Positions 3,161-53,571 of a DNA stretch of 64,000 bases are shown here, piece after piece (within the stretch, counting starts at the first letter, position 1; every line of letters begins with the position of its first letter). The translations under genes were made by a program, and so were the position numbers. The stretch comes from Steroidobacteraceae bacterium (GTDB lineage: Bacteria > Pseudomonadota > Gammaproteobacteria > Steroidobacterales > Steroidobacteraceae). The notes under the pieces were generated by a model, which saw nothing but the letters and a program-made list of their open reading frames with translations, was not told where the DNA came from and made no database searches. The DNA is taken from the NCBI GenBank assembly GCA_035553315.1, contig DATNDE010000019.1:316-64315 (forward strand). Reading direction: 5' to 3'.

Positions 3161-4282
3161 GTGGGTCTTTATATGGGATTGATGTCCGGAACGAGCATGG
3201 ACGGTATCGATGCCGCTCTGCTCGACATCGACGCCGATGGAATGCGCGTGCGCGCAGCCGCGGCGCGCGACTGGCCCGCCTCGCTGCAGACACGCCTGCG
3301 TCACGCCGCCGAACGCGCCGAGAGCACCGGGCTCTACGAGCTCGGAGAGCTGGACACCGCGGTGGGCGTACAACTGGCGTCGGCTGCCGCCGCGCTGCTT
3401 GAGTCCGCGGGTGTCAGCGCCGCCGCGGTGCGCGCCATTGGCAGCCACGGTCAAACCATCCTGCACCGGCCCTCGGGCCAGTGTCCGTTCACGCTGCAGA
3501 TCGGCGATCCCAACATCATTGCCGAGCGCCTGGGCATCGACGTGGTCGCTGACTTTCGCCGCCGCGACGTCGCAGCCGGAGGCGAGGGTGCGCCGCTGAT
3601 GCCGGCCTTCCACGCAGCGGTCTTCGCGGCGCGCGGGCAGCGGCGCGCCGTGGTGAACATCGGCGGCATGGCCAATGTCACGCTGCTCGGGGCCGACGGC
3701 GGCGTGCTCGGCTTCGATACCGGGCCGGGCAATTGCCTGCTCGACGCCTGGGCGCGCCGCCATCTGGGTCATGCCTACGATGCCGATGGCCGCTGGGCCG
3801 CCAGCGGGCGGGTGCAGCCGGCGCTGCTGGCGCGCCTGCTGGCCGATCCCTACTTTGCGCGCCCGGCGCCCAAGAGCACCGGCCGCGAGACCTTCAGCGA
3901 CGCCTGGCTCGAGCGCACCCTGGCGGGCGGATCCGGGCACCTCGATGCCGCCGACGTGCAGGCGACGCTGGCCGAGCTCACCGCCCGCAGCATCGTCGAT
4001 GCCCTGACGCAGGCCGCCGGCGGGGCCGCCCCCTCGCAGGCCTACGTCTGCGGCGGCGGCGCTTTCAATGTCGACCTGATGCAGCGGCTGGCGAGAGCAC
4101 TGCCCGTCACGCTCTGGCAGAGCACCGCGGCCTGCGGCATTGCCCCCGAGCACGTGGAGGCCGCGGGTTTCGCCTGGCTCGCGCATCGCTGCCTGGAAGG
4201 AACCGCCGGGAACCTGCCGAGCGTCACTGGCGCGCATCATCCCGTGCCGCTCGGTGCGTTGTATCGCGGCCGGCTCGCCTGA
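3161..4282 (+). CDS. anmK: Anhydro-N-acetylmuramic acid kinase
   Basis: The N-terminus GLMSGTSMDGIDAAL matches the AnmK signature. Start is GTG at 3161 or ATG at 3173. Divergent from tyrS. Confidence 0.9.
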   Translation: MGLYMGLMSGTSMDGIDAALLDIDADGMRVRAAAARDWPASLQTRLRHAAERAESTGLYELGELDTAVGVQLASAAAALLESAGVSAAAVRAIGSHGQTILHRPSGQCPFTLQIGDPNIIAERLGIDVVADFRRRDVAAGGEGAPLMPAFHAAVFAARGQRRAVVNIGGMANVTLLGADGGVLGFDTGPGNCLLDAWARRHLGHAYDADGRWAASGRVQPALLARLLADPYFARPAPKSTGRETFSDAWLERTLAGGSGHLDAADVQATLAELTARSIVDALTQAAGGAAPSQAYVCGGGAFNVDLMQRLARALPVTLWQSTAACGIAPEHVEAAGFAWLAHRCLEGTAGNLPSVTGAHHPVPLGALYRGRLA

Positions 4283-23384: not shown

Positions 23385-23873
23385 CTACAACAGCTCCCGC
23401 TCGCTGGTCACGCTCGTCTCCTCGGCGACCATGATCTCCAGTCGCTCCAGATCCGGCACCCAGGGGGTCTCATTGAGCAAACGCACCTGGCAGATCACCG
23501 GCGTGCGCTCGGGAAAGCTGCGCGAGTTATCCGGGCGAACGACATCGCTACCGACGCGCACCAGCTGCGGAAAGCCCTGCGATACGATCGCGACGTAACC
23601 GGCTTCCAGCCGCCCGAGTAGCGCATGAAACACCACGATGCGCGAGCGGCTGCTCGGCGCGGGCGTTGCCATGCCGCAGACCCCCTCGAAGGAGACCAGC
23701 GGCAGGGAACGGGCGTTCCAATTGACGATGCCCAGATACCAGGGCGGCGTGCCTTCGACGGGCGTGGGGGCCTGATAGCCGATGACCTCTCCCACGCAGG
23801 CGCGCGGCACCAGCACGCGCGCATCGGCGAGCGGGATCAGCAGGCTGTACACCTCGGCGACGCGCTCGGCCAT
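23385..23873 (-). CDS. chpC: CheW-like coupling protein (ChpC-like)
   Basis: 162 aa CheW fold (LLIPLADARVLVP...WYLGIVNWNARSLPLVSFE). It lies 6 nt downstream of chpA. Confidence 0.75.
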   Translation of the reverse strand: MAERVAEVYSLLIPLADARVLVPRACVGEVIGYQAPTPVEGTPPWYLGIVNWNARSLPLVSFEGVCGMATPAPSSRSRIVVFHALLGRLEAGYVAIVSQGFPQLVRVGSDVVRPDNSRSFPERTPVICQVRLLNETPWVPDLERLEIMVAEETSVTSERELL

Positions 23874-23879
23874 GATCGA

Positions 23880-26800
23880 TCAGCCGGACGAGGCGCGCTG
23901 CGTCTGGGCGCGGCGCGCCACCAGCGGCGCAATCGCATCGATCAGCTGGCTCTCCTGGTAGGGTTTGCCCAGGTAGTCATCTACGCCGAGTTCGATCGCG
24001 CGAGCGCGATGCTTCTCGCCCACGCGCGATGTAATCATGATGATCGGTATATCCGCGAGGCGTGGATCGGCTCGCACATGCGCCGCCACCTCGTAGCCGT
24101 CCATGCGTGGCATCTCGATGTCCAGCAGGATGATATCCGGGATGTGCTCGGCCAGCATCGCCACGGCATCCATGCCGTCGCGCGCAGTCATGACGCGCAT
24201 GCCGTTGCGCTCGAGCAGTCGCTGCGTGACGCGCCTGACCGTGATCGAATCATCCACCACCAGCGCGAAGGTGCGCCGGTCGACCTTGTCGCGCGGCACG
24301 GTGGGCGCGGCACGGCCGCGCCACTCGGCGCGTACCAGGGCACCGATGTCCAGGATGATCACGATGCGCCCATCCCCGAGGATGGTCGCGCCCGAGATGC
24401 CGCGAATGCCGGAGATCTGCGGCCCCACGGGCTTCACGACGATCTCGCGGCTGCCGATCAGCTCGTCGGCCACCAGGCCCGTGGAGTGCTCGCCGGCGCG
24501 CACCAGCACCACCGGGATCGTCACGTCCTGCTCAGGCAGCGGCGAGGACTCCATGCCCACGTAGTTCGCCAGCGGCTGCAGTCGGTACTTGTGCGTGCCG
24601 TAGCTGAAGCTCGCGCTGTCGGCGCGCAGGTGTGCGGCCACCTCGTCGCGCGTCAGGCGCACGACGCCCTCCACCGTGGGCAGCGGCAGTGCGTAGTACT
24701 CATCGCCGGTGCGCACCACCAGTGCGTGGCTGATCGCGAGCGTGAAGGGCAGTCGGATCGTGAAGCGCGTGCCCGCACCCGGCGTGCTCTCCATGTGCAG
24801 CGCCCCGCCGAGCTTTTTAATCTCCACGGCCACGACGTCCATGCCCACGCCGCGGCCGGCCTGTTGCGTCAGTGTGCTGGCCGTGGAAAAGCCGGGCTCG
24901 AGCACCAGCTGCATCACATCCTCGTCCGAGAGCGCCTGCTCCGCGCGGATCAGTCCGAGCGAGAGCCCCTTGGCGCGAATGGCCGCCAGATCCATACCGG
25001 CGCCGTCATCGGCGAGCTCGACGATAAATTCCGCGCCTTCGCGCTTGAGTGACAGCGTGATGCGCCCGGTCTCGTCCTTGCCGGCGGCGCGCCGCCGCTC
25101 CGGTGTCTCGATGCCATGGACCACGGCATTGCGCAGCATGTGCTCGAAGGGCGGCAGCATACGCTCGAGCACCTGCCGATCGAATTCACCGGCGGCACCC
25201 TCGACGATGAGCTCGGCGCGCTTGTCCGTATCGGCGGCCGCCTGACGCACGATGCGCCCGAGCCGCTGCACGTGGCGCTGGAAGGACACCATGCGGGTGC
25301 GCATCAGCCCGTTCTGCAGCTCAGTCACGGTGCGCGACTGCTGCTGCAGCAGGTTCTGCGCCTCGCCGATGAGATTCTCGAGCAGCCCCTGGATGCTCGC
25401 GACGTCGCTGGCCGATTCGGCCAGGGCGCGCGAGAACTGCTGAATCGATGAGTAGCGATCGAGCTCCAGTGGATCGAACTGCGCGCGATGACCGGGCTCG
25501 GAATCGTGCCGGTGCAGGATCTGCGCCTCGGTCTCGATCTCGAGCTTGCGCAGCTGCTCCTTCAGGCGCGTCACCGTGCGCGACAGCTCGCCAAGGTTGA
25601 ACTCGATCGAGCCGAGCTGCTGCTCGAGCCGCGCTCTGGCGATGCTGACTTCCCCGGCGCTGTTCAGCAGCGTATCCAGCAGCTCGGCGCTGACGCGTGC
25701 CATCTCGACACGGTCGGCGGCAACCATCGGCTCGCGGCCCGGTGGCAGGGGCGGAATTGTCGGCGTCGCGCCAGCCGCAGCCCGCTCCGGCACCGGCGGG
25801 GTGACTGCCGGAGTCGCTGGCGCCGATGGTGCAGGCGCACCTGCGGGCGACGCCGCGGGAGCAGATGCCGCTGCGGATGCGGATACGCGTGCAGGTGCGG
25901 GTGCAGATGGCGCGGCGGCGGTAACGACCCGCGGCGCCGAGGGGGCTTTGATAGGCGCCGCCGCGCTTGGGATCAGCGCAGGTTTGGGCGTCGCTTGGAC
26001 CGGCACCGGTTGCGCCGCGGGACGTGGGCCGGCGCCACTCATGGCGCGCAGCCGCGCGATCAGCTCGGGAGCCTCCGGTGTGGGACGGCCGCCGGCGATG
26101 GCTTCGCGCATGCGTGCCAGCTCATCGATGGCCTCCTGCGCCACCTCGCGCGCCTGCTCATCGGCGCTGCTGATACCGCTCTCGATGCGCGACACCAGGC
26201 TTTCCAGCTCGTGTGCGAGCTCGCCCATGGCGGACAGTCCCGCCATACGCGCACCGCCCTTCAGCGTATGCAGCGCGCGGCGCAGCGCGCCGACATGCTC
26301 GGTGTCCTGCGGCGCGGCGTTCCAGGCGGCGAGAGCCGATTCGGCGCTTTCCAGCAGCTCCACCGCCTCCTCGCCGAAGATCGCCGCGATCTCCGGATCG
26401 AGCTCGGCGCGCTCTCGGGCGCCCGGCTGGGCTGGTTCCTCGAGGGATACCTGCAGTGGCGGGGCCATGAGGCTCACGCTGCTGCGCGCCGTGAGCTCGG
26501 CATTCTCGGAAATGCGCCGCTCCAGGGCCTGGTCGGCGCGCGCGATGCGCGCTCGCAGCGTGTCGTGCACCACGAAAAAGCCCGTGGCTTCATCCAGGTG
26601 CGCCGCCACGCTCTGCATGGCGGTCATGCAGTCGCCCAACAGCTGCAGATCCGAATCGTCCAGTCCCACTCCACTGTCGAAGGACTTGCGCAGCCAGCGA
26701 TTGAGCGCCTCGGCCAGCCGCACTCCGTGACGTGCCTCGGCCATCGTCGAGCTGCCGACCAGCGTGTGACAGGCGCGGAACACGGGCTCGGGCAGCACGT

Positions 26801-29420
26801 GCGGCGCCGGCATGAGGCTCTCACGCTCGATCCAGGCGCGCACCGTGGCCACATGCCCGGCAGTCTCGCGCGCATAGATGTCGCGCAGGGCCTGATCGCC
26901 TTCGAGCGCGTGGCTGCCCGTCGGCGCCTCGGAGGAAATCTGCGCATCCGCGGCCTCGGGCAGCGGTCGCGCCACTGGCGCGGCCGGCGGCGCAGATGCG
27001 GATGTTGCCGCCGCGGGGCCTGCCGTGGCGGCACCGACCGAGCCGGTTGCGGGCGCTGCCGTCGAGGTGGCAGTGGGCTGCTCGCGTCCGCTGGCATAGG
27101 CATGCGCGCGCGCCACGAGCTGTGAGACGTCGGTGCCGCCCGGCGCGCCGGCGGCAAGCTCGGCCACCAGCTGCGGCATCAGGCCCACCGCGGTGCGCAG
27201 CACCTCCAGAATCGGCGGCGAGCGTTGCAGCGTGCCGTCGATGAGCCGGTTGAGCAGATTCTCCACCGCCCAGGCAAATTCGCTGATATGGCGCGCATTG
27301 ACCATGCGGCCACTGCCCTTGAGCGTGTGGAAGGAGCGGCGCACCGAGAGCAGCGCCTCGCTCTCGAGCGGATTCAGATCCCACACGGGGAAGCGCTGCT
27401 GAATCTTGGCCACCTCCTCGCTCGCCTCTTCGATGAACAGGCGCGTGAGCTCGGGATCCGGCAGCGTCGCCTCGTGCGTCGAGCTGGCCGCGGCGGCGGC
27501 GAGCACCGGCGGCTCGATCACCTCGGCCGGGCGGGCGATGCGTGCGGTCTGCCCCGCGGCATCCGCCGGCTCGGCTGCTCCCGAGGGCGGGCTCGCCGCG
27601 ACGCCCATATCCTGCAGCGCGTGCCGCGAGAGCGGCCCGGCCGTATCCTCGGCGCCCGGCGTCAGCAGCACCGTGCGTGTGTGCGTGCGCGCCGACAGCG
27701 GCACGACCGTCGGCACCACACGCTCGGGCGCGCGTGCCAGCGCATCCAGGCATGCGCGCGCATTATCGAGCATGTACCAGGGATCGCTGCGGCCGCTCTG
27801 CAGCGTCTCGATGTAATACTCGAGACTGACGATCGCATCGGCGAGTCGATCCAGGCTCTCGGGCGGCAGCGCCGTGCCACCCGGCTGCATCACGCGCTTC
27901 AGGTGCTGCGTGATGCCCTCGATGATCTCCACGGCGCGTGTCTTGCCGAGCATCAGCAGCCCGGCCTTGATGCCACGCATGAGCTCCGGCCAGTTATCGA
28001 AGCCCGCCGTATCCAGCGTCCCGCTGACGTTCTGCGCCACGTACTCCTTGACGCGTGCCAGATTCACGACGCATTCGCGCAGTACCGCCCCCTGCACCTG
28101 CTGGAAATCGTGGTCCTGCTCCTCGGTCTCCTCGGGGGCCTTCTTGCGCGGCAGAATCAGCCCGACGAGTTGATCATCCAGCCGATCCTCGACCTGGATG
28201 AGTCCCGCGGCGACCTGCACCAGCTCGGCCTCGCCGCTCGGCTCGCGGCCGGCGACCATGGCCTCCAGTCTCTGCGTCGCCTCCTGCACGCCGGCGCGCA
28301 GTTCGCCCAGCCCGAGTACCCCGAGCGTATCGCCGATCTTGCGCAGCAGGGCGACCTGGGGCGCAAGCTCCTCGGCGGCCTCCCCGCCCCGGCGCACGTA
28401 GATGTCCAGCACGTCCTTGACCTTGGAGAGGTCCTCGCGGATCGCCGCGGCCACCGTGTGCATCAGCTTGATCGAGGGCGCCGATAGGTTCTCGCGCTCC
28501 TGCTCCACCGATTCGTCCACCGGCAGCAGCTCGTTGAGGCGGAACGAGGCGCGCACGGCGGCCACGCGCGGACCGGAACTGCTCGAGCGCGCGATGTAAT
28601 AGAGCACGTTGTTCAGCAGCTCCACCGGCGGGTGCTGCGCGTAACGCGTCTCACCCTGCTCGTAGAGTCGCTTCAATTCCCGGTCAGCCAGTCCCAGCAG
28701 GCGCTTGACCGAGATGCTGCTCTCCACGCCGTTCTCGCGCAGCGCCTCGAGCAGTGCGCCGACGACCCACCAGAGCTGGAACACCGGCTGCGCGCTGGCC
28801 GCCTGCTCGAGCTTGCCGGCCACCGACGACAACGTCTCGAGGTGCTGCTCCGCGCGCTCGCCGCGGATCCAACCAATGAGCCCGGTCTGATAGCGCGAGC
28901 GCAGTCGCCGTGCCCACTGCGCGACACTCAGCGGCGCCTCGCCGGGAGCCGCCGGCAGCGGGGCCGGCTGTGCCTGCCGGTCGGATTTGAGATTCAGCAG
29001 CAGCAGCGTGCCTTCGGACAGCAGCGCACTGCCGCGCACCGCCCGCAGGTCATTGAGCAGCGGCAGCAGCACCAGCGCCAAGTCGCGACCGCCGGCGAGC
29101 ACGCGCTCCAGGTAGCCGGGCAGCTGCACCATGGCGCGCATCAGTGCATCGAGCGCCTCAGCCTGATTCTTGCGCTCGCTGCCCAGGGCAACGAGGTACT
29201 GCGCGACCTGCTCCATCTCCTCGGCCAGCAGCGCCGCTCCATAGATCTCCATCATGCGCAACACGCCCTGCACCTGATGCAGCTCGTCGCGGCAGCGCTC
29301 CAGCAGCGTCATGTTCTGCGGCTGCTCGACGTGCGTCTCGAGGGCAGTGCGCCCGTCGGCAAGCGCGGCGCTGATCTCGCGCGCCACCGTGTGCAGCGTT
29401 TGCGTGGCCAGATCGGTCAT
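23880..29420 (-). CDS. chpA: ChpA/PilL-type hybrid CheA histidine kinase (multiple Hpt domains, HATPase, CheW domain, C-terminal receiver)
   Basis: 1846 aa. Three clear Hpt motifs (FHTLKGSGRM, CHTLVGSSTM, LHTLKGGARM) plus degenerate N-terminal Hpt-like repeats. Also an Ala/Pro linker, a CheA dimerisation/ATPase region (HMLRNAVVHGIE, DDGAGMD, GRGVGMDVV), a CheW-like domain and a CheY-like receiver (VVDDS...DIEMPRMDG...K). Confidence 0.9.
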   Translation of the reverse strand: MTDLATQTLHTVAREISAALADGRTALETHVEQPQNMTLLERCRDELHQVQGVLRMMEIYGAALLAEEMEQVAQYLVALGSERKNQAEALDALMRAMVQLPGYLERVLAGGRDLALVLLPLLNDLRAVRGSALLSEGTLLLLNLKSDRQAQPAPLPAAPGEAPLSVAQWARRLRSRYQTGLIGWIRGERAEQHLETLSSVAGKLEQAASAQPVFQLWWVVGALLEALRENGVESSISVKRLLGLADRELKRLYEQGETRYAQHPPVELLNNVLYYIARSSSSGPRVAAVRASFRLNELLPVDESVEQERENLSAPSIKLMHTVAAAIREDLSKVKDVLDIYVRRGGEAAEELAPQVALLRKIGDTLGVLGLGELRAGVQEATQRLEAMVAGREPSGEAELVQVAAGLIQVEDRLDDQLVGLILPRKKAPEETEEQDHDFQQVQGAVLRECVVNLARVKEYVAQNVSGTLDTAGFDNWPELMRGIKAGLLMLGKTRAVEIIEGITQHLKRVMQPGGTALPPESLDRLADAIVSLEYYIETLQSGRSDPWYMLDNARACLDALARAPERVVPTVVPLSARTHTRTVLLTPGAEDTAGPLSRHALQDMGVAASPPSGAAEPADAAGQTARIARPAEVIEPPVLAAAAASSTHEATLPDPELTRLFIEEASEEVAKIQQRFPVWDLNPLESEALLSVRRSFHTLKGSGRMVNARHISEFAWAVENLLNRLIDGTLQRSPPILEVLRTAVGLMPQLVAELAAGAPGGTDVSQLVARAHAYASGREQPTATSTAAPATGSVGAATAGPAAATSASAPPAAPVARPLPEAADAQISSEAPTGSHALEGDQALRDIYARETAGHVATVRAWIERESLMPAPHVLPEPVFRACHTLVGSSTMAEARHGVRLAEALNRWLRKSFDSGVGLDDSDLQLLGDCMTAMQSVAAHLDEATGFFVVHDTLRARIARADQALERRISENAELTARSSVSLMAPPLQVSLEEPAQPGARERAELDPEIAAIFGEEAVELLESAESALAAWNAAPQDTEHVGALRRALHTLKGGARMAGLSAMGELAHELESLVSRIESGISSADEQAREVAQEAIDELARMREAIAGGRPTPEAPELIARLRAMSGAGPRPAAQPVPVQATPKPALIPSAAAPIKAPSAPRVVTAAAPSAPAPARVSASAAASAPAASPAGAPAPSAPATPAVTPPVPERAAAGATPTIPPLPPGREPMVAADRVEMARVSAELLDTLLNSAGEVSIARARLEQQLGSIEFNLGELSRTVTRLKEQLRKLEIETEAQILHRHDSEPGHRAQFDPLELDRYSSIQQFSRALAESASDVASIQGLLENLIGEAQNLLQQQSRTVTELQNGLMRTRMVSFQRHVQRLGRIVRQAAADTDKRAELIVEGAAGEFDRQVLERMLPPFEHMLRNAVVHGIETPERRRAAGKDETGRITLSLKREGAEFIVELADDGAGMDLAAIRAKGLSLGLIRAEQALSDEDVMQLVLEPGFSTASTLTQQAGRGVGMDVVAVEIKKLGGALHMESTPGAGTRFTIRLPFTLAISHALVVRTGDEYYALPLPTVEGVVRLTRDEVAAHLRADSASFSYGTHKYRLQPLANYVGMESSPLPEQDVTIPVVLVRAGEHSTGLVADELIGSREIVVKPVGPQISGIRGISGATILGDGRIVIILDIGALVRAEWRGRAAPTVPRDKVDRRTFALVVDDSITVRRVTQRLLERNGMRVMTARDGMDAVAMLAEHIPDIILLDIEMPRMDGYEVAAHVRADPRLADIPIIMITSRVGEKHRARAIELGVDDYLGKPYQESQLIDAIAPLVARRAQTQRASSG

Positions 29421-29465: not shown

Positions 29466-30941
29466 TCAGGAGCCGCCGAGCACCTTGACTTTGGGGTTGG
29501 AATAGCCGCCGCCCGGCCCCGAGGCACCGGGCGGTCCGTTGCCCGGCGGTTGCGTGCCAACGCGCGTGCCCGCATGCGCAGCAGCGGCGGCCGCTGCCCC
29601 GCCCAGCACCAGCGTCGCGGAGGAAGCGCCTGCCGGCGAGGACTGCGTGGCGCCGGCTGCCCCGGACAGCTCGCGCGAGGCGCTCTGCGAGAGCGTGCGG
29701 TGCATGCCGGAGGTGTCGGTTCCGCCGGGCAAGCGAAAGCCGGCGATGGACTTGCGCAGCGCCGCGGCCAGATCCGCCAGCTTGATGATCGATTGCGAGG
29801 TGGCGCTGGTGGAGTCGGCCGATTGCGTGCTGATCTCGCGCAGTACCTGCATGTTGCGCGCGAGTGCCTGCGCCGCGGATGCCTGTCCGCGCGCACTGGC
29901 GGAGATGTTCTGCACCAGGCTCGCGATCTGGTTGGACACCTGATCGATCTCCAGCAGCGCCGCGCCGGCGTTCTCGGCCAGCAGCGCCCCACCCACCACA
30001 TCGGTGGTACTGCGCTCCATCGACACCACCGCCTCGTTGGTGTCGGTTTGAATGGTCCGCACCAGCACCTCGATCTGCTTGGTGGCATTGGCTGCGCGCT
30101 CGGCGAGCCGCTGCACCTCGTCGGCCACGACCGCAAACCCGCGACCGGCCTCCCCGGCCATGGACGCCTGGATCGAGGCGTTGAGCGCCAGGATGTTGGT
30201 CTGCTCGGCGATGTCGCTGATCAGCTCGACGATGTTGCCGATCTCCTGCGAGCTCTCGCCCAACCGCTTGATGCGCTTGCTGGTCTCCTGAATCGTCTCG
30301 CGGATCGCGTTCATGCCATCGATGGTGCGGCGAACGGCGTCGCCACCCTTATGGGCGACGTCCACCGAGTGGCGCGCGACATCGGCAGCGCGCTCGGCAT
30401 TGCCCGACACCTCTTCGATGGAAGCAGCCATCGCGCCGATCGACTCGCTCGCCGAGCCGATCTGCTTGGACTGCGCACTGGTCGCGCGCGTCAGGTGCGA
30501 GGCCAGCGCCTGCGTCTGCCGCGCCGCGGCGTCCAGCTGAATGGCCGACTGGGCGATCGTCGCCACCAGCTTGCGCAGAGCCTCGACCGCGTAATTGACC
30601 GAGTCCGCGATCGCCCCGGTGATGTCCTCCGTGACCGTCGCCTGCACCGTGAGATCACCCTCGGCGAGACTCGACATCTCATCGAGCAGCCGCATGATCG
30701 CCTGCTGATTGCGATCGGTATCCAGGCGCTGCGTCTCGGCCGCCTTGCGCGCATTCTCGGCCACCTGCTCCGCGTGCCGCAGGTAGGCGAGCAGCATCCA
30801 CAGCGGCGCGAGCGCCAGCAGCGCGGGCAACGCCGCCCAGAAAGCCGCCACGTGCGCCACCGAAAGCCCGATGGCAACCAGCGCGGCCAGCCCCGCTAGC
30901 GCGAGCGCCGCGAGCGCCAGTGTCTGCGGTCCGCGCCTCAC
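29466..30941 (-). CDS. pilJ: PilJ-type methyl-accepting chemotaxis protein lacking a periplasmic domain
   Basis: PilJ-specific linker ([43 protein letters not shown]) and a conserved MCP signalling hairpin ([39 protein letters not shown]). Only a TM hairpin precedes it. GTG 30941 overlaps the pilI stop (GTGA); ATG 31001 is possible. Confidence 0.85.
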
Positions 30942-31504
30942 GCGCTCGCCTCCAGGAATGAGACATCCTCCACCAGCGAGCGCAGCCCGAGCACCGGCCA
31001 CTGCTCATTGGTGCGCTTGAAGGAGCCGGCGATGTAGCGCGCAGAGTTTACGATGGTCGGGGGCACGTCCGCGGAAAACTCCGCATCGGCGAAGCGACGG
31101 AATCCGAGCACCTCGTCGACCACGAGTCCGGCGGGAATGTCGCGATGGTTGACAACGATGATGCGCGCAGTGCGCGCGGCCGGGGTCTCGCCACCCCCCA
31201 GGTAGGCACGCAGATCGATGATCGGCAGCAGCGCCCCGCGCACGTTGGCCAGCCCGAGGATCCAGCTTTTCGCGCCGGGCACCCGTGTAAGGGGTGAAGG
31301 CACGCCGAGCACCTCGCGTGCCTCTTCGCGTGCCACCAAGTAGAGCTCTCCTGCCATCTTCAATGCCACGCCGACCCATTCCCCGGCGGCTGCCGCCTCG
31401 GTGCCCGCGCTGGCGGTGACCGCCCGGCCACGACGCTCGAGCTCGGCCAGCAGCTCGAAGGGCCGATCCCGCAGCGCTCTGAGCGTCGAGGTGCTCTCCT
31501 GCAT
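30938..31504 (-). CDS. pilI: CheW-like coupling protein PilI
   Basis: CheW fold ([15 protein letters not shown]...[17 protein letters not shown]...[11 protein letters not shown]). ATG 31504 lies just after the pilH stop. Confidence 0.8.
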
Positions 31505-31505
31505 G

Positions 31506-31871
31506 TCAGGCTGCGAGCGTCGCCTGAGCCTTCTCGACCAACTGGTCCGGCGACACCGGCTTGACCAGGTAATCGATCGCACCCTGGCGCAGTCCCCAGA
31601 CCCGGTCGGCCGCCTGTCCCTTCGAAGTCACCATGACGATCGGAATCGAGCTCGTGTCCGGATCGTTCACCAGCGCACGGGTGGCCTGATAGCCATTCAC
31701 GCCGGGCATGACGATGTCCATGAAAATCAGGTCCGGATGCATCTGGCGCGCGAGCCGCACACCCTCGGCGCCGTCGGTTGCGGTGGCCGTGCGGTAGCCG
31801 TGACGCTCGAGGGCCTTCTGCATCACGTGCACCTCGGTCGGCGAATCGTCCACGATGAGGATCAGCGCCAT
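31506..31871 (-). CDS. pilH: CheY-like response regulator PilH
   Basis: 121 aa single receiver (ILIVDDS, DLIFMDIVMPG, VTSK). Confidence 0.85.
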   Translation of the reverse strand: MALILIVDDSPTEVHVMQKALERHGYRTATATDGAEGVRLARQMHPDLIFMDIVMPGVNGYQATRALVNDPDTSSIPIVMVTSKGQAADRVWGLRQGAIDYLVKPVSPDQLVEKAQATLAA

Positions 31872-31903: not shown

Positions 31904-32377
31904 TCATCGCCCGATGTGCGACTCGATCGCACTGAGCAGCTCGTCCTTCGTGAAGGGCTTGGTCAGATAGTGCTCCGAGCCCACGATGCGTCCGCGCGCA
32001 CGATCGAACAGCCCGTCCTTGGAGGACAGCATGATGACCGGAATCGAGCGGAATACTTTGTTGTGTTTGATGAGCGCGCAGGTCTGATAACCGTCCAGAC
32101 GCGGCATCATGATATCGACAAATACGATGTCCGGCTGATGATCCGCGATCTTGGCGAGCGCATCGAAGCCATCCACTGCCGTGAAGACCTCGCAGCCCTC
32201 CTTGGTGAGCAGCGTCTCGGCCGTGCGGCGAATCGTCTTGCTGTCGTCGATGACCAGCACCTTCAGGCCGCGAAGCGATGACGCCGGCGGCCGGGGCGCC
32301 GTGGCCGCCATATGGGTGGTGCCGCCGGCACCCCCACCATCGGCTGCTGCGCCACGCTCGTCCATCGTCGATTCCAT
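31904..32377 (-). CDS. pilG: CheY-like response regulator PilG
   Basis: Receiver domain (VLVIDDSKTIR, DIVFVDIMMPRLDG, MLSSKDG...YLTKPF) with a Gly/Ala-rich N-terminal extension. ATG 32377 is preceded by GGAGGG; GTG 32386 is the ORF limit. Confidence 0.85.
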   Translation of the reverse strand: MESTMDERGAAADGGGAGGTTHMAATAPRPPASSLRGLKVLVIDDSKTIRRTAETLLTKEGCEVFTAVDGFDALAKIADHQPDIVFVDIMMPRLDGYQTCALIKHNKVFRSIPVIMLSSKDGLFDRARGRIVGSEHYLTKPFTKDELLSAIESHIGR

Positions 32378-32495
32378 GCTCCACACCCTCCGGCCCGGTC
32401 CGGCGGCCGCCCTGTGTCCCTAAGCTTGACTCGCTCCCGGCGGCGATACCCTATACAGACGAGGCTCTCCTTGGCGCGGTGCCAAGTCCCGCCTT

Positions 32496-32540: not shown

Positions 32541-32755
32541 TCGGCACAATCGCGGCCGGCAGCGAGTTCGCGCCGCGTGCCGCGCGTTTTAACATATCGG
32601 CACACCCCCCGCTATGCCGCCCCCGTCACGGTTTTTGAAGGCCACGACGCCTCTTCGCGACCCCTGGCGGCGATGTGGAACATAATCCCACCGGCGCGTC
32701 CTGCGAGGCTGCGCTCGGGCCGCTGCGCAGCCCGAAGTTGGAGGAGCGAGAGAGA

Positions 32756-33754
32756 ATGGCTACATCCGTGCGATCGGCCCCCGTCCGACTGGCCGTGGTC
32801 ATGGACCCGATCGGGCTGATCAAATACGCCAAGGACACGACGCTCGCCCTGCTGCTGGCGGCGCAGTCGCGCGGCTGGTCGCTGCACTACCTGGAACAGA
32901 AGGACCTGCGTCTGCGCGACGGCGTGGCGGAGGGCCGAGTGCGTGATCTGAGCGTGCGCGCCGACCCGCAGCAGTGGTTCACGCTCGGTGAGCCGGCCAC
33001 GCAAGCCCTGGGCGACTTCGACGTCATCCTCATGCGCAAGGATCCGCCGTTCGACACCGAATACATCTATACGACCTATATCCTCGAGCGCGCCGAGGCC
33101 GCCGGTGCCCTCGTGGTCAACCGACCGCGCGGTCTGCGTGATATGAATGAGAAAGTGTTCACCGCGTGGTTCCCGCAGTGCTGCGCCCCGACGCTGGTGA
33201 CGCGCGACATGGCCGAGATGGCCGCCTTCGCCGCCGAACACGGCAAGGTGGTGGTCAAACCCCTGCACGGCATGGGCGGCCATTCCATCTTCGTGCTCGA
33301 CCGTGCCGACAAGAACGCCCGGGTCGTGTTCGAGACCCTGACCGATGAGGGTCGTCGCTTTGCCATCGTGCAGAAATATCTTCCCGACATCGTCACCGGC
33401 GGCGATTCGCGCGTGCTGATGGTCAACGGCGAACCGGTGCCCTATGCGCTGGCGCGCATTCCCAATGCCGAGGACAACCGCGGCAATCTCGCCGCTGGCG
33501 CCAAGGGCGTGGGGCGCCCCTTGACCGAGCGCGACCACTGGCTCGCGGGACAGATCGGTCCGGCGCTGCGCGAGGCCGGCATGCTGTTCGTCGGCCTGGA
33601 TGTCATCGGCGGCTATGTCACCGAGATCAACGTGACCAGCCCCACGGGGCTACGCGAGCTGGAAAAGCAGTTCGGCATCGACATCGGCGCACTGTTCATG
33701 GATGCCGTCGAGCAGCGTCTGCAGCGCCACACCGCACGCGTCGCATCAGCATGA
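32756..33754 (+). CDS. gshB: Glutathione synthetase
   Basis: VVMDPI..IKYAKDTTLALLLAAQSRGW, VILMRKDPPFD and an ATP-grasp C-terminus (EINVTSPTG). ATG 32756 follows GGAGGAG. Confidence 0.9.
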   Translation: MATSVRSAPVRLAVVMDPIGLIKYAKDTTLALLLAAQSRGWSLHYLEQKDLRLRDGVAEGRVRDLSVRADPQQWFTLGEPATQALGDFDVILMRKDPPFDTEYIYTTYILERAEAAGALVVNRPRGLRDMNEKVFTAWFPQCCAPTLVTRDMAEMAAFAAEHGKVVVKPLHGMGGHSIFVLDRADKNARVVFETLTDEGRRFAIVQKYLPDIVTGGDSRVLMVNGEPVPYALARIPNAEDNRGNLAAGAKGVGRPLTERDHWLAGQIGPALREAGMLFVGLDVIGGYVTEINVTSPTGLRELEKQFGIDIGALFMDAVEQRLQRHTARVASA

Positions 33755-49371: not shown

Positions 49372-50478
49372 TCAGCCGAAGTTGATCTTCGCCTCGAGAT
49401 TGGTACGCGAGTCCGCGTACATCAGCGCTTCCTCGAGCGTAATGCGTCCCTGCTTGAACAGCTTGTGCAGGCTCGAATCGAAGCTGCGCACGTCCTTGTC
49501 GCCGCTCTGCATGATCGATTCCTTGATGCTCATGACGTCGCCGCGCTTCACGAGCTCGGCGATGTGCGGCGTGTTCATCATGACTTCGATGGCCGCGACG
49601 CGCTTGTTGTCCACGCCCATGACCAGGCGCTGCGCAAGGATCGCGCGCAGATACTGCGACAGGTCCAGCGTGACCTGCTTGAACTGGTCCAGCGGGAACA
49701 TATTGATGATGCGGTCCAGGCTCTCGGCGCAATTGTTGGCATGCAGAGTCGCGAGCACCAGGTGACCCGTGCCGGCCAGATTGATGGCCGCCTGCATGCT
49801 CTCGCGATCGCGGATCTCACCGATCAGAATCACATCGGGTGCCGCACGCACTACCGCACGCAGCGCTGCGGCATAGGTGCGCGTATCCAGTCCGACCTCG
49901 CGCTGATTGATGATCGAGCGCTTGTTGGCGTGCAGGAATTCGATCGGATCCTCGATCGTAACGATATGATCCGAGGCGCTCTCGTTGCGATGATTGATCA
50001 TCGCCGCCAGCGTCGTGGACTTGCCCGAACCGGTGGCACCGACGACCAGGATCAGGCCGCGCTTGAGCATCGCGAGGTCCGCGCAAACCTCCGGCAGGCC
50101 AAGTCCGTCCACGCGCGGCATGTCCGCGCTGATATAGCGCAGCACCATCGCAGGGTAGCCGCGCTGATAAAAAATATTGACGCGGAAGCGCCCGAGCCCC
50201 GACTCGCTGATCGCAAAGTCGATCTCCAGGTCGCGCTGGAACTGCTCGAGCTGCTCGGGATTCATGAGCCCGAAGCAGATCGAGCGCACGGCCGAGGGCG
50301 ACAGCACCTGCTTGTTGATCGGGAAAATCTGCCCTTCGATCTTGATCTTGATCGGCGCGTTCGAGGTGAAGAACAGATCCGATGCCTTGCGGTCCACCAT
50401 CAGCTGGAACAGCGGCTTGGTGTTCAGCGTGGTCTGGGTTTCGCTGACCGGCAAGTCGATTGGGTCGGTGACAGCCAT
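49372..50478 (-). CDS. Second PilU-like type IV pilus retraction ATPase paralogue
   Basis: 368 aa with Walker A GATGSGKSTT, Asp box, Walker B DVILIGEIRD and His box GHLVLATLHAN. It lacks the PilT AIRNLIRE motif. It lies 4 nt downstream of pilU. Confidence 0.85.
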   Translation of the reverse strand: MAVTDPIDLPVSETQTTLNTKPLFQLMVDRKASDLFFTSNAPIKIKIEGQIFPINKQVLSPSAVRSICFGLMNPEQLEQFQRDLEIDFAISESGLGRFRVNIFYQRGYPAMVLRYISADMPRVDGLGLPEVCADLAMLKRGLILVVGATGSGKSTTLAAMINHRNESASDHIVTIEDPIEFLHANKRSIINQREVGLDTRTYAAALRAVVRAAPDVILIGEIRDRESMQAAINLAGTGHLVLATLHANNCAESLDRIINMFPLDQFKQVTLDLSQYLRAILAQRLVMGVDNKRVAAIEVMMNTPHIAELVKRGDVMSIKESIMQSGDKDVRSFDSSLHKLFKQGRITLEEALMYADSRTNLEAKINFG

Positions 50479-50482
50479 GGCG

Positions 50483-51637
50483 TCAGAAACTCTTTCCCTG
50501 TACTTCCTCGACGATGGTCAGATCCCCGTCCGCCTCGATCGGCTTGTTCTCGCGCTTGCTGTCGAGCTTGATGCGCAGACGCAGCTCGTTCTTGGAGTCG
50601 GAGTTGCGCAGCGCATCCTCGTACGAGATATAGCCCTGCTCGTACAGTTCGAATAGCGCCTGATCGAAGGTCTTCATGCCGATGCGGTTGGAGCGCGCCA
50701 TGATCTCCTTGATCTTGGCGACGTCGCCACGGAAGATCAGGTCCTGGATAAGCGGCGAGTTGAGCATGATTTCCATCGCCGCGATGCGCCCATGACCCGA
50801 CTCGCGCGGAATCAGCCGCTGCGAGATCAGTGCGCGCACGTTCAGCGACATGTCCATGAGCAGCTGCTCGCGCCGCTCTTCGGGGAAGAAGTTGATGATG
50901 CGATCGAGCGCCTGGTTGGAGCTGTTCGCGTGCAATGTGGCGAGCACCAGGTGTCCGGTCTCGGCGAACTGAATGCCGTACTCCATCGTCTCGCGGTCGC
51001 GGATCTCGCCGATCAGGATCACGTCCGGCGCCTGGCGCAGCGTATTGCGCAATGCCGTGTGCCACGATTCGGTATCGACGCCCACTTCTCGGTGCGTGAT
51101 GACGCAGCCGCGGTGCTGGTGCACGAATTCCACCGGGTCCTCGATGGTCACGATGTGTCCGCGGGTCTTGTCGTTGCGATAGCCGACCATCGAGGCGAGC
51201 GTCGTGGACTTGCCCGAACCGGTGCCGCCCACGACGATCACGAAGCCGCGCTTGGAGAGCACGACTTCCTTGAGGATCGGCGGCAGATCGAGCTCCTCGA
51301 AGGTCGGAATCTTGGCGTTGATCAGGCGGATGACGCAGCCGACGTGGCTCTGCTGCACGAAGGCGCTGACGCGAAAGCGGCCGATGCCGGGCGGCGCGAT
51401 CGCGAAGTTGCACTCCTTGGTGGCGTCGAACTCGCGCGTCTGCCGGTCGTTCATGATGGCGCGCACCAGCAGCGCCGATTGGTCGGCCGACAGCGCGCGT
51501 TCCATCTGCGGGCGCACTTCGCCATCGACCTTGATTGCCGGCGGGAAGCCCGCCGTGATGAACAGATCGGAGGCCTGCCGCTCCACGACCCGCTTCAGCA
51601 GCTCCTGCATCAGCTTGATGGCTTGATCACGATCCAT
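50483..51637 (-). CDS. pilU: Type IV pilus ATPase PilU
   Basis: 384 aa with GGTGSGKSTT, DVILIGEIRD, GHLVLATLHAN and a PilU-type C-terminal tail. Confidence 0.9.
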   Translation of the reverse strand: MDRDQAIKLMQELLKRVVERQASDLFITAGFPPAIKVDGEVRPQMERALSADQSALLVRAIMNDRQTREFDATKECNFAIAPPGIGRFRVSAFVQQSHVGCVIRLINAKIPTFEELDLPPILKEVVLSKRGFVIVVGGTGSGKSTTLASMVGYRNDKTRGHIVTIEDPVEFVHQHRGCVITHREVGVDTESWHTALRNTLRQAPDVILIGEIRDRETMEYGIQFAETGHLVLATLHANSSNQALDRIINFFPEERREQLLMDMSLNVRALISQRLIPRESGHGRIAAMEIMLNSPLIQDLIFRGDVAKIKEIMARSNRIGMKTFDQALFELYEQGYISYEDALRNSDSKNELRLRIKLDSKRENKPIEADGDLTIVEEVQGKSF

Positions 51638-51698: not shown

Positions 51699-52739
51699 TT
51701 ACAGCGCGTCCTTGTTCTGCGCCTTGTAACGGGCCTCTTCCTTGCTCACGACGCCCTTTTGCAGCAGATCGGCGAGGCACTGATCCAAGGTTTGCATGCC
51801 GGCCGACTGACCGGTCTGGATGCTCGAATACATCTGCGCAATCTTGCCCTCGCGGATAAGGTTACGGATGGCCGGTGTGCCGATCATGATCTCGTGCGCG
51901 GCCACCCGGCCGCCGCCGATGCGCTTGAGCAAGGTCTGGGAGATCACCGCGCGCAGCGACTCCGAGAGCATCGAGCGCACCATGTCCTTTTCTTCGCCGG
52001 GGAATACGTCGACCACGCGGTCGATGGTCTTGGCGGCGGAGCTGGTATGCAGCGTGCCGAACACGAGGTGGCCGGTCTCGGCTGCGGTCAGCGCCAGCCG
52101 GATGGTCTCCAGGTCGCGCAATTCACCGACCAGCACCAGATCGGGATCCTCGCGCAGCGCCGAGCGCAACGCTTCGCTGAAGCCGAGGGTGTCGCGCTTG
52201 ACCTCGCGCTGATTGATCAGGCAGCGCTTGCACTCGTGCACGAACTCGATCGGGTCCTCGATCGTGATGATGTGATCCGGACGATTGTCGTTGCAGTAGT
52301 CGATCATCCCCGCCAGCGTGGTGGATTTGCCCGAGCCTGTCGGGCCGGTCACCAGCACCAGCCCGCGAGGCAGCATGCACAGATCGCGGAAGATCTTCGG
52401 CGAGCCGAGCTCATCGAGGCTCAAAATGTTGGACGGGATGTTACGGAATACCGCGCCGGCGCCGCGATTCTGATTGAACGCGTTGACACGAAAGCGCGCG
52501 AGCTTGGGGATCTCGAAGGAAAAATCCGTCTCGAAGAATTCCTCATAGGCCTTGCGCTGCTTGTCGTTCATGATGTCGTACACCATGCCGTGCACTTCCT
52601 TGTGGGTCAGTGCAGGCATGTTGATACGCTTCATGTCGCCGTCGACGCGGATCATCGGCGGCACACCGGCCGACAGGTGTAGATCGGACGCGTTATTCTT
52701 GACGGAGAACGCGAGCAGTTGCGCGATATCGACGGCCAT
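51699..52739 (-). CDS. pilT: Twitching motility ATPase PilT
   Basis: MAVDIAQLLAFSVKNNASDLHLSAG, GPTGSGKSTT, GHLVFGTLHT and the PilT-specific AIRNLIREGK. Start is ATG 52739. Confidence 0.95.
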   Translation of the reverse strand: MAVDIAQLLAFSVKNNASDLHLSAGVPPMIRVDGDMKRINMPALTHKEVHGMVYDIMNDKQRKAYEEFFETDFSFEIPKLARFRVNAFNQNRGAGAVFRNIPSNILSLDELGSPKIFRDLCMLPRGLVLVTGPTGSGKSTTLAGMIDYCNDNRPDHIITIEDPIEFVHECKRCLINQREVKRDTLGFSEALRSALREDPDLVLVGELRDLETIRLALTAAETGHLVFGTLHTSSAAKTIDRVVDVFPGEEKDMVRSMLSESLRAVISQTLLKRIGGGRVAAHEIMIGTPAIRNLIREGKIAQMYSSIQTGQSAGMQTLDQCLADLLQKGVVSKEEARYKAQNKDAL

Positions 52740-52782
52740 CGGGTCCTCGTGCCGCGCACGGCGCGGCGAAACGGAACGCAGT

Positions 52783-53571
52783 ATGACGGACGGCGTTTTG
52801 ACCAATATGTTAATCGGTCCGCAGATTTCACCTGCCGATACCGCGCTGGCCGCACGGCTGGCGGCGCTGCGGGCCGCGATCGGCAGTGCCGCGAGCCGCG
52901 CCGGCAGGACTGAGGAATCGATCACGCTCATCGCCGTCAGCAAAGGGCATGCCGCCGGGCAGGTACGGCAGGCTTTCTCTCTGGGCATCCGTCACGTCGG
53001 TGAGAGCTACCTGCAGGAGGCTCTGGGCAAGCGCGCCGTACTCGCCGACCTGCCGCTGGTCTGGCACTTCATCGGACGGCTGCAGACGAACAAGACACGG
53101 CCGATCGCCGAGCAGTTCGATTGGGTGCACGGCGTGGATCGCCTGCACATCGCCGAGCGCCTCTCGGCACAGCGTCCCGCAACGCTGCCGGCGCTCAACG
53201 TGTGCGTGCAGGTGAGCGTCGCAGGGGAGGCCGGTAAGGGGGGCGTCGCGCCCGCGTCGCTGGCGCCGCTGGCTGCGGCGATCGGCTGCTTGCCGCGCCT
53301 GAGGCTGCGCGGGCTGATGTGCATCCTGCCGGCGAATCTTGCGCCCGACGCCAATCGCGCCTTGTTCGCAGTGCTGCGTCAGTGCCTGGCGCGCCTCAAC
53401 GCCTCATACAGTGATTCGCCGACCGCCGCACGCCTGGATACGCTCTCGATGGGCATGAGCGAGGATTTCGCCGAGGCGATTGCCGAGGGCGCAACCTGCA
53501 TCCGTATCGGCACTGCGCTGTTCGGCCCGCGGCGCGCTCCCACTCCCCCATCTACGGCGGGGCTTGGATAG
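52783..53571 (+). CDS. yggS: YggS-family pyridoxal-phosphate homeostasis protein
   Basis: LIAVSKGH (PLP Lys), WHFIGRLQTNK and SMGMSEDFAEAI. Divergent from pilT. Confidence 0.85.
   Translation: MTDGVLTNMLIGPQISPADTALAARLAALRAAIGSAASRAGRTEESITLIAVSKGHAAGQVRQAFSLGIRHVGESYLQEALGKRAVLADLPLVWHFIGRLQTNKTRPIAEQFDWVHGVDRLHIAERLSAQRPATLPALNVCVQVSVAGEAGKGGVAPASLAPLAAAIGCLPRLRLRGLMCILPANLAPDANRALFAVLRQCLARLNASYSDSPTAARLDTLSMGMSEDFAEAIAEGATCIRIGTALFGPRRAPTPPSTAGLG

Follow-up and report, generated by a model that had tools for sequence, protein, structure and literature searches.

RESULTS

A pilJ gene without a periplasmic domain lies in a Pil-Chp cluster

The DNA analyzed here (the window) is a 64,000-nucleotide stretch of contig C19 from a 3.27-Mb genome in 44 contigs that is 89% complete. 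The host is a soil bacterium, represented by a Steroidobacteraceae MAG, and the closest relatives of the genome are all Steroidobacteraceae MAGs. On the minus strand, the window carries six genes in the order pilG-pilH-pilI-pilJ-chpA-cheW. These are pilG (31904 to 32386; PF00072 at residues 43 to 155 of the response regulator, for which the exact start is uncertain), pilH (31506 to 31871; a single-domain response regulator, PF00072), pilI (30938 to 31504; a CheW protein, PF01584, E = 1.5e-25), the pilJ orthologue (29466 to 30941), chpA (23880 to 29420), and a second, chpC-like cheW (23385 to 23873; PF01584). The 1,846-residue ChpA has several Hpt domains, a dimerization domain and an HATPase domain (the kinase core), a CheW domain, and a receiver domain according to Pfam. 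Lying between pilI and chpA, the pilJ orthologue is where a pilJ gene is expected.

Divergent from pilG are gshB (32675 to 33754, plus strand; PF02955 and PF02951), a TonB-like gene, algH, ruvX, and pyrB, the arrangement that flanks pilG in Pseudomonas. The window also has three tandem minus-strand genes (49372 to 50478, 50483 to 51637, and 51699 to 52988) for retraction ATPases of the PilT/PilU family (TIGR01420, E = 1e-122 to 1e-149), whereas P. aeruginosa has only pilT and pilU. PilM is encoded elsewhere in the genome. Judged by its genes, the cluster is a Pil-Chp cluster, and the genome also encodes type IVa pilus machinery.

The list of open reading frames and their translations gives a pilJ product of 491 amino acids from a GTG at 30941. 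A first-pass annotation of the window had placed the start there and had pointed out that the pilI stop at 30938 leaves no room for a periplasmic module. This assignment held up. The GTG overlaps the pilI TGA (30940 to 30938) as GTGA, a 4-nucleotide overlap. Direct reading of the sequence finds a GGAGG Shine-Dalgarno sequence 7 nucleotides before it (30949 to 30953, minus strand), and the equivalent start codon is used in NCBI- and JGI-annotated homologues. The sole longer in-frame start, a GTG at 31001, would add 20 amino acids inside pilI and still no domain. Relatives that JGI labels "twitching motility protein PilJ" are 73 to 96% identical to the window protein.

The protein is a membrane hairpin joined to the PilJ linker and signaling domain

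Residues 5 to 54 form one continuous hydrophobic stretch in hydropathy analysis. An AlphaFold2 model has a helix at residues 4 to 28, a turn at residues 29 to 32 (A-H-V-A), a helix at residues 33 to 94, a break at a GDLT connector, a helix at residues 99 to 400, and no structure in residues 401 to 491. The model is poor overall (mean pLDDT, 56.5), with N-terminal blocks at a pLDDT of 58 to 79. We assigned TM1 to residues 7 to 28 (30858 to 30923, minus strand, as are all the parts of pilJ given below) from hydropathy and the first AlphaFold2 helix. TM2 was assigned to residues 33 to 54 (30780 to 30845) from alignments and the second helix; it has an ALxPL motif in common with TM2 of full-length PilJ proteins (long forms). 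Between them, at the AlphaFold2 break, the turn A29-H30-V31-A32 (30846 to 30857) is the whole of the remaining periplasmic part. Two TM helices a few residues apart, with no extracytoplasmic domain, make up the topology of a hairpin methyl-accepting chemotaxis protein (MCP), and we refer to this form of PilJ as headless.

The post-TM2 segment and the PilJ-specific HAMP-like linker occupy residues 55 to 135 (30537 to 30779) and are 88% identical within the window's clade. The conserved linker sequence, in blocks of 14 and 23 residues, starts at residue 76, and the motif that opens with NQQAI[ML]RLLDE covers residues 76 to 117. Two motifs, RNQQAIMR and VQATVTED, pulled out 531 relatives. Solved MCPs align from residue 82 on, HAMP regions included (residues 82 to 140). 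MCPsignal (PF00015) is the only Pfam domain in the protein (residues 186 to 368; E = 3.1e-40; 138 bits against a cutoff of 34.6). The whole signaling coiled coil, with matches to PDB entries 6s18, 2ch7, and 1qu7, can be placed at residues 136 to 405 (29727 to 30536), where it ends at GFRLP. From linker to GFRLP there are about 270 residues, which as a simple length comparison is compatible with 40 heptads (280 amino acids). The sequence contains no strict methylation motif. In the protein, Pfam detected neither the PilJ N-terminal domain (PF13675) nor a PAS, GAF, or similar cytoplasmic sensor of the kind that Aer has; 6 residues precede TM1.

The protein ends in a tail predicted to be disordered (residues 406 to 491; 29469 to 29726) in which 71% of residues are G, A, S, T, or P and for which AlphaFold2 gives a pLDDT below 40 and no secondary structure. 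Hydropathy, AlphaFold2, and Pfam thus agree with the initial description of two back-to-back TM helices followed by the PilJ linker and signaling domain, and the Gly/Ala/Ser/Pro-rich tail, first put at about 90 amino acids, is 86 amino acids long.

Headless PilJ is common in the Steroidobacteraceae and occurs in other lineages

Hundreds of proteins of 430 to 520 amino acids, 73 to 96% identical and encoded on independent contigs, have the same hairpin. For a comparison within the family, we used 80 species-representative loci and the window (81 loci). Open-frame length proved an unreliable measure of protein length in this high-GC family and was replaced by the spacing between the pilI stop and the conserved core, by which the classes are defined. 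The hairpin class (31 loci) has 68 to 99 amino acids before the core and two adjacent TM helices. Three loci are intermediate, with about 190 amino acids before the core and a shortened periplasmic domain. The long class (about 41 loci) has 312 to 335 amino acids before the core and a periplasmic domain of 230 to 255 amino acids. Nearly all reduced forms keep two TM helices.

Some loci deserve separate mention. In L023 (JBGAIL010000111.1, about 3998 to 4136), only 45 codons separate the core from the pilI stop and just one TM helix remains, a still more reduced anchor. Periplasmic domains of about half size (about 110 to 170 amino acids) are found in L041, L047, and L070 and also in L111 and L127 to L130. 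L034 and L059 were considered as "split" PilJ proteins or intermediates and rejected, being long forms with a frameshift that may be a sequencing error. The frameshift is inside or just after the part that encodes the sensor domain, and both are MFD-series MAGs.

Of 151 family genomes sampled evenly, 142 have the PilJ core. The sensor domain was present in 81 of these, always directly upstream of the core and in the same frame, and missing in 61 (43%). None of the seven genomes of the window's genus has it, including a single-contig (closed) genome that is 99% complete. Class-wide, PilJ (linker plus signaling region, E ≤ 1e-70) was found in 188 of 400 genomes, with nearly all frames at 675 to 760 amino acids. 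Hairpin PilJ proteins outside the family were found in Methylophaga sp. OBS1 and OBS3 (421 and 420 amino acids; WP_323135152.1 and WP_323135062.1), in Spectribacter/Salinisphaera isolates of the Salinisphaeraceae (429 amino acids; WP_311651942.1), and in one further lineage. The Methylophaga and Spectribacter/Salinisphaera carriers are cultured isolates.

The sensor domain was lost repeatedly, and the rest of the protein is under purifying selection

A maximum-likelihood gene tree was made by quick search from a 335-amino-acid core of 112 rows. Nine rows that were truncated, frameshifted, ambiguous in their start, or a duplicate of the window were left out (L010, L023, L034, L058, L059, L076, L091, L125, and L126). 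The window PilJ is inside a 12-member clade in which all members are hairpins (SH-aLRT, 95). Across the tree, the hairpin state changes nine times by parsimony, and at least five changes are forced by well-supported branches. Whether headless forms define a clade had been raised as a check in the first-pass annotation. They do not; the gene tree has at least five independent losses.

Clean in-frame deletions are visible between close relatives. One tight clade mixes long forms (L031, L038, and L062) with forms from which the central 125 or so amino acids are cleanly gone (L041, L047, and L070), and it also includes L067 and L078, in which essentially the whole periplasmic part is deleted. N-terminal alignment shows that TM1 and TM2 are kept in every one of these proteins. 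TM2, ALxPL included, can be aligned between the window's clade and the nearest long forms.

The dN/dS ratio of the core is 0.09 in the hairpin clade versus 0.075 in a long-form clade. At about 0.09, the codon comparison shows headless PilJ to be under purifying selection, with its cytoplasmic part strongly constrained. The sensor domain, where there is one, evolves fast, at a pairwise identity of 39% versus 88 to 94% for the cytoplasmic modules. The cluster is kept at both kinds of locus (chpA in 79, pilG in 76, and pilH in 76 of the 81 family loci). Repeated independent loss together with strong selection suggests that the core job of the receptor probably does not need the sensor domain.

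What the remaining hairpin does can be read in two ways. It might itself be the sensor, reading a membrane-embedded partner from the side, as HtrII does with sensory rhodopsin II, or responding to membrane tension or curvature. Candidate partners would be the prepilin pool and alignment/platform proteins such as PilN, PilO, or PilC. The retention of two helices in nearly all reduced forms, with the protein not made soluble, is consistent with such a role, and the ALxPL motif common to long and short forms leaves room for some membrane-level signaling. A PilA-PilJ interaction reported in P. aeruginosa, as cited in 10.1101/2023.05.02.539127, also fits, but the mechanosensing model built on it is disputed (10.1101/2023.05.02.539127). 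However, pairwise identity within the window's clade is 35% for TM1, 24% for the turn, and 48% for TM2, compared to 88% for the cytoplasmic part, and conservation of the hairpin residues does not exceed that of the TM helices in long forms. Furthermore, L023 has one TM helix only, and Pfam analysis of the genes from pilG to cheW in the window found no extra membrane-protein gene. Because of this weak conservation, the single helix of L023, and the lack of an additional membrane protein in the cluster, we favor the hairpin as an anchor and consider a sensing hairpin unlikely.

No PilJ-type sensor domain is encoded elsewhere in the genome

PF13675 had no match anywhere in the window's genome. 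This profile is too insensitive here, with weak matches on 2 of about 80 long-form PilJ proteins of the family, and its four above-cutoff matches are at other loci. We replaced it with a profile built from 42 sensor domains of family PilJ proteins. As a positive control, the new profile found 25 PilJ proteins of other gammaproteobacterial families at E values of 3e-23 to 8e-8. Against the six-frame translation of the window's genome, its best match had an E value of only 0.13, and two single sensor-domain protein queries found nothing at E ≤ 1. The genome encodes two MCPs only, headless PilJ and a 731-amino-acid protein on contig C38. The profile, the queries, and this census together revealed neither a second full-length pilJ in the assembly nor any PilJ-type sensor domain. 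Therefore, a full-length PilJ encoded elsewhere and paired with this cluster, the first of two findings named in advance as fatal to the headless reading, did not materialize. With a MAG that is 89% complete, a missing contig is possible for this genome alone, and the closed congener argues against it.

The MCP on C38 would be the obvious source of periplasmic input if sensing took place in trans, by its joining the ChpA array, and it does have a periplasmic domain of about 300 amino acids. However, it is 33% identical to headless PilJ, lacks the PilJ-specific linker motifs, and belongs to a complete separate cluster with its own CheA, CheR, CheB, CheD, and CheZ, which makes its participation very improbable. 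That chemosensory cluster (C38, about 63.8 to 74.6 kb, outside the window) consists of a cheZ-like gene, cheA (721 amino acids), cheR, cheD, cheB, the MCP gene, and an HDOD gene. It contains the sole CheR and CheB of the genome.

Adaptation enzymes, cAMP output, and the C-terminal tail

The window's cluster has neither pilK nor chpB, and pilK (CheR) is beside pilJ in none of the 81 family loci, the window included. In other families, pilK is beside pilJ at 15 loci. There, the sensor domain is reduced in 9 of 21 clusters without pilK versus 0 of 15 with it (raw Fisher P = 0.0046). Phylogenetic control leaves two informative independent pairs (sign test P = 0.5), which makes a tie between a reduced sensor domain and the absence of pilK a hint only.

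The 151 family genomes sampled yielded no MASE2 (CyaB-type) domain. Therefore, the cAMP output of P. aeruginosa, on which a suggested deletion phenotype for this pilJ was based, may not apply here. A link between loss of the sensor domain and loss of a CyaB-type cyclase was considered and rejected, because MASE2 is absent whatever the form of PilJ and there is no contrast to exploit. A single class III cyclase domain is encoded in the window's genome, on contig C37.

We also rejected the Gly/Ala/Ser/Pro tail as a mark of headlessness, since it is a family-wide trait and is present on long forms too. Its last 12 residues (480 to 491; 29469 to 29504) are a conserved terminal motif. The motif, which is [KR]x[KRQ][IV]xxLGG[ST]-like, is family-wide on both long and short PilJ proteins and resembles the pentapeptide tethered at the C terminus of E. 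coli receptors. In the C termini of family PilJ proteins (the window and L005 to L084), a variable disordered linker is followed by this basic-hydrophobic motif. Among loci of other gammaproteobacterial families (L093 to L130), 13 of 13 PilJ proteins that end one residue past GFKLP have pilK immediately downstream. All 12 long-form PilJ proteins without pilK in other families carry a C-terminal extension, of 13 to 89 amino acids. From these sequence patterns, the tail may replace something that is supplied by PilK.

The loss of the whole domain, the absence of pilK and chpB, and the lack of a strict methylation motif could all be signs of a defunct Pil-Chp system of which pilJ is a decaying leftover. 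Decay is hard to reconcile, however, with a core dN/dS as low as that of long forms, an intact reading frame with a start translationally coupled to pilI, a cluster kept in nearly all family loci, and a headless form that persists across whole genera, and we give this explanation very little credence. An artifact, in the form of an assembly deletion at about 30800 to 30950, as the first-pass annotation had allowed, or a missed sensor domain encoded upstream, would suit a contig that comes from a MAG but is scarcely believable, because pilI adjoins the pilJ start with its 4-nucleotide overlap and hundreds of independent contigs share the short architecture, as do 31 of the 81 species-level loci, the closed congeneric genome, and cultured isolates in RefSeq.

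DISCUSSION

The window encodes a PilJ orthologue; the sequence data establish its identity and architecture, the lack of the sensor domain in the genome, the recurrence of this loss, and purifying selection. We consider it likely that this is the true PilJ of a Pil-Chp system controlling type IV pili and that the sensor was deleted in frame, leaving a hairpin anchor and a receptor with cytoplasmic input. The deletion would have removed the entire periplasmic ligand-binding domain and left TM1 and TM2 joined by a 4-residue turn. The hairpin would then most likely be a membrane anchor only. The intact HAMP-like linker and signaling domain would still assemble with PilI, the ChpC-like CheW, and ChpA, and the assembled receptor complex would control PilG and PilH. 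Modulators would act on the cytoplasmic part of headless PilJ, and the retraction motor PilT is one candidate. Alternatively, headless PilJ may merely set the basal activity of ChpA. On the predicted topology, sensing of a periplasmic ligand by this protein would be impossible, and because there is no periplasmic domain, any input must be exerted on the cytoplasmic part. To that extent, the anatomy leads to the first-pass claim of input through the membrane or cytoplasm. The route itself, like the anchor-only role, is what we infer from it.

A TM hairpin without a periplasmic domain is, by analogy, an already known class of MCP. E. coli Aer and haloarchaeal HtrII have a TM hairpin with a very short outer loop, a HAMP-like linker, and a signaling domain. 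At its N terminus, Aer has a cytoplasmic PAS sensor; HtrII is docked to a rhodopsin. Unlike these, headless PilJ has no N-terminal domain before TM1 and no evident partner gene. Myxococcus xanthus FrzCD is an MCP without a periplasmic sensor that controls pilus and gliding motility reversals. It is a soluble protein of another chemosensory class and lacks TM helices. Its likeness to headless PilJ is the shared lack of a periplasmic sensor, and any implied homology is confined to the MCP domain.

The closest comparison is with P. aeruginosa PilJ (PA0411). Like it, the window pilJ is in a gshB/pilGHIJ-chpA cluster, is encoded alongside the partners PilI, ChpA, PilG, and PilH, and specifies the PilJ-specific linker motifs and signaling domain. 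Unlike it, the window PilJ has no periplasmic sensor domain of about 260 amino acids, which in P. aeruginosa has a helical bimodular fold (PDB 8WDF, cited in PMC12632253). The window protein also differs in its 86-residue disordered tail with the terminal motif, and its cluster differs in having no pilK or chpB. An engineered P. aeruginosa PilJ that lacks residues 39 to 303/309 has almost the same architecture, with TM1 nearly directly joined to TM2 (PMC12632253). In contrast to that construct, the window form is natural, is fixed in whole genera, is under purifying selection, and has arisen repeatedly.

Results from P. aeruginosa fit an anchored PilJ with cytoplasmic input. With the engineered deletion, the bacterium twitches but cannot chemotax toward phenol-soluble modulins (PMC12632253). 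An earlier study, as cited in 10.1101/2023.05.02.539127, found that loss of the sensor domain weakens but does not abolish surface induction of cAMP. Binding of PilT to PilJ is a two-hybrid observation from one distant species in which the binding region is unmapped (10.1101/2023.05.02.539127). The first-pass annotation had described the periplasmic module as the proposed sensor of pilin or pilus state. That idea is contested in recent literature (bioRxiv 10.1101/2023.05.02.539127).

Full-text literature searches found no description of a sensorless or hairpin PilJ in nature. Databases label the headless proteins simply PilJ or MCP, and the present analysis corrects these labels, in which the PilJ names carry no mention of the missing module. 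Natural headless PilJ is of interest because it bears on the disputed route of Pil-Chp input and because cultured carriers exist. Competing models of surface sensing let the signal enter PilJ through pilin bound to the periplasmic domain or, from the cytoplasm, through the retraction motor. At least five natural losses of the sensor, with the receptor and kinase cluster kept, amount to a natural experiment in which the core function probably does without the domain. Methylophaga and Spectribacter are cultured nonpathogens in which the question of signal input is directly testable.

More broadly, and tentatively, the ancestral and conserved input to Pil-Chp could be independent of the sensor domain, mechanical or motor derived, and cytoplasmic. 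The domain would then be an optional chemical add-on that became dispensable once PilK and ChpB were gone. We regard this as possible, at somewhat less than an even chance. If it is true, the headless lineages, cultured ones among them, would be ready-made minimal systems for learning how pilus activity is sensed.
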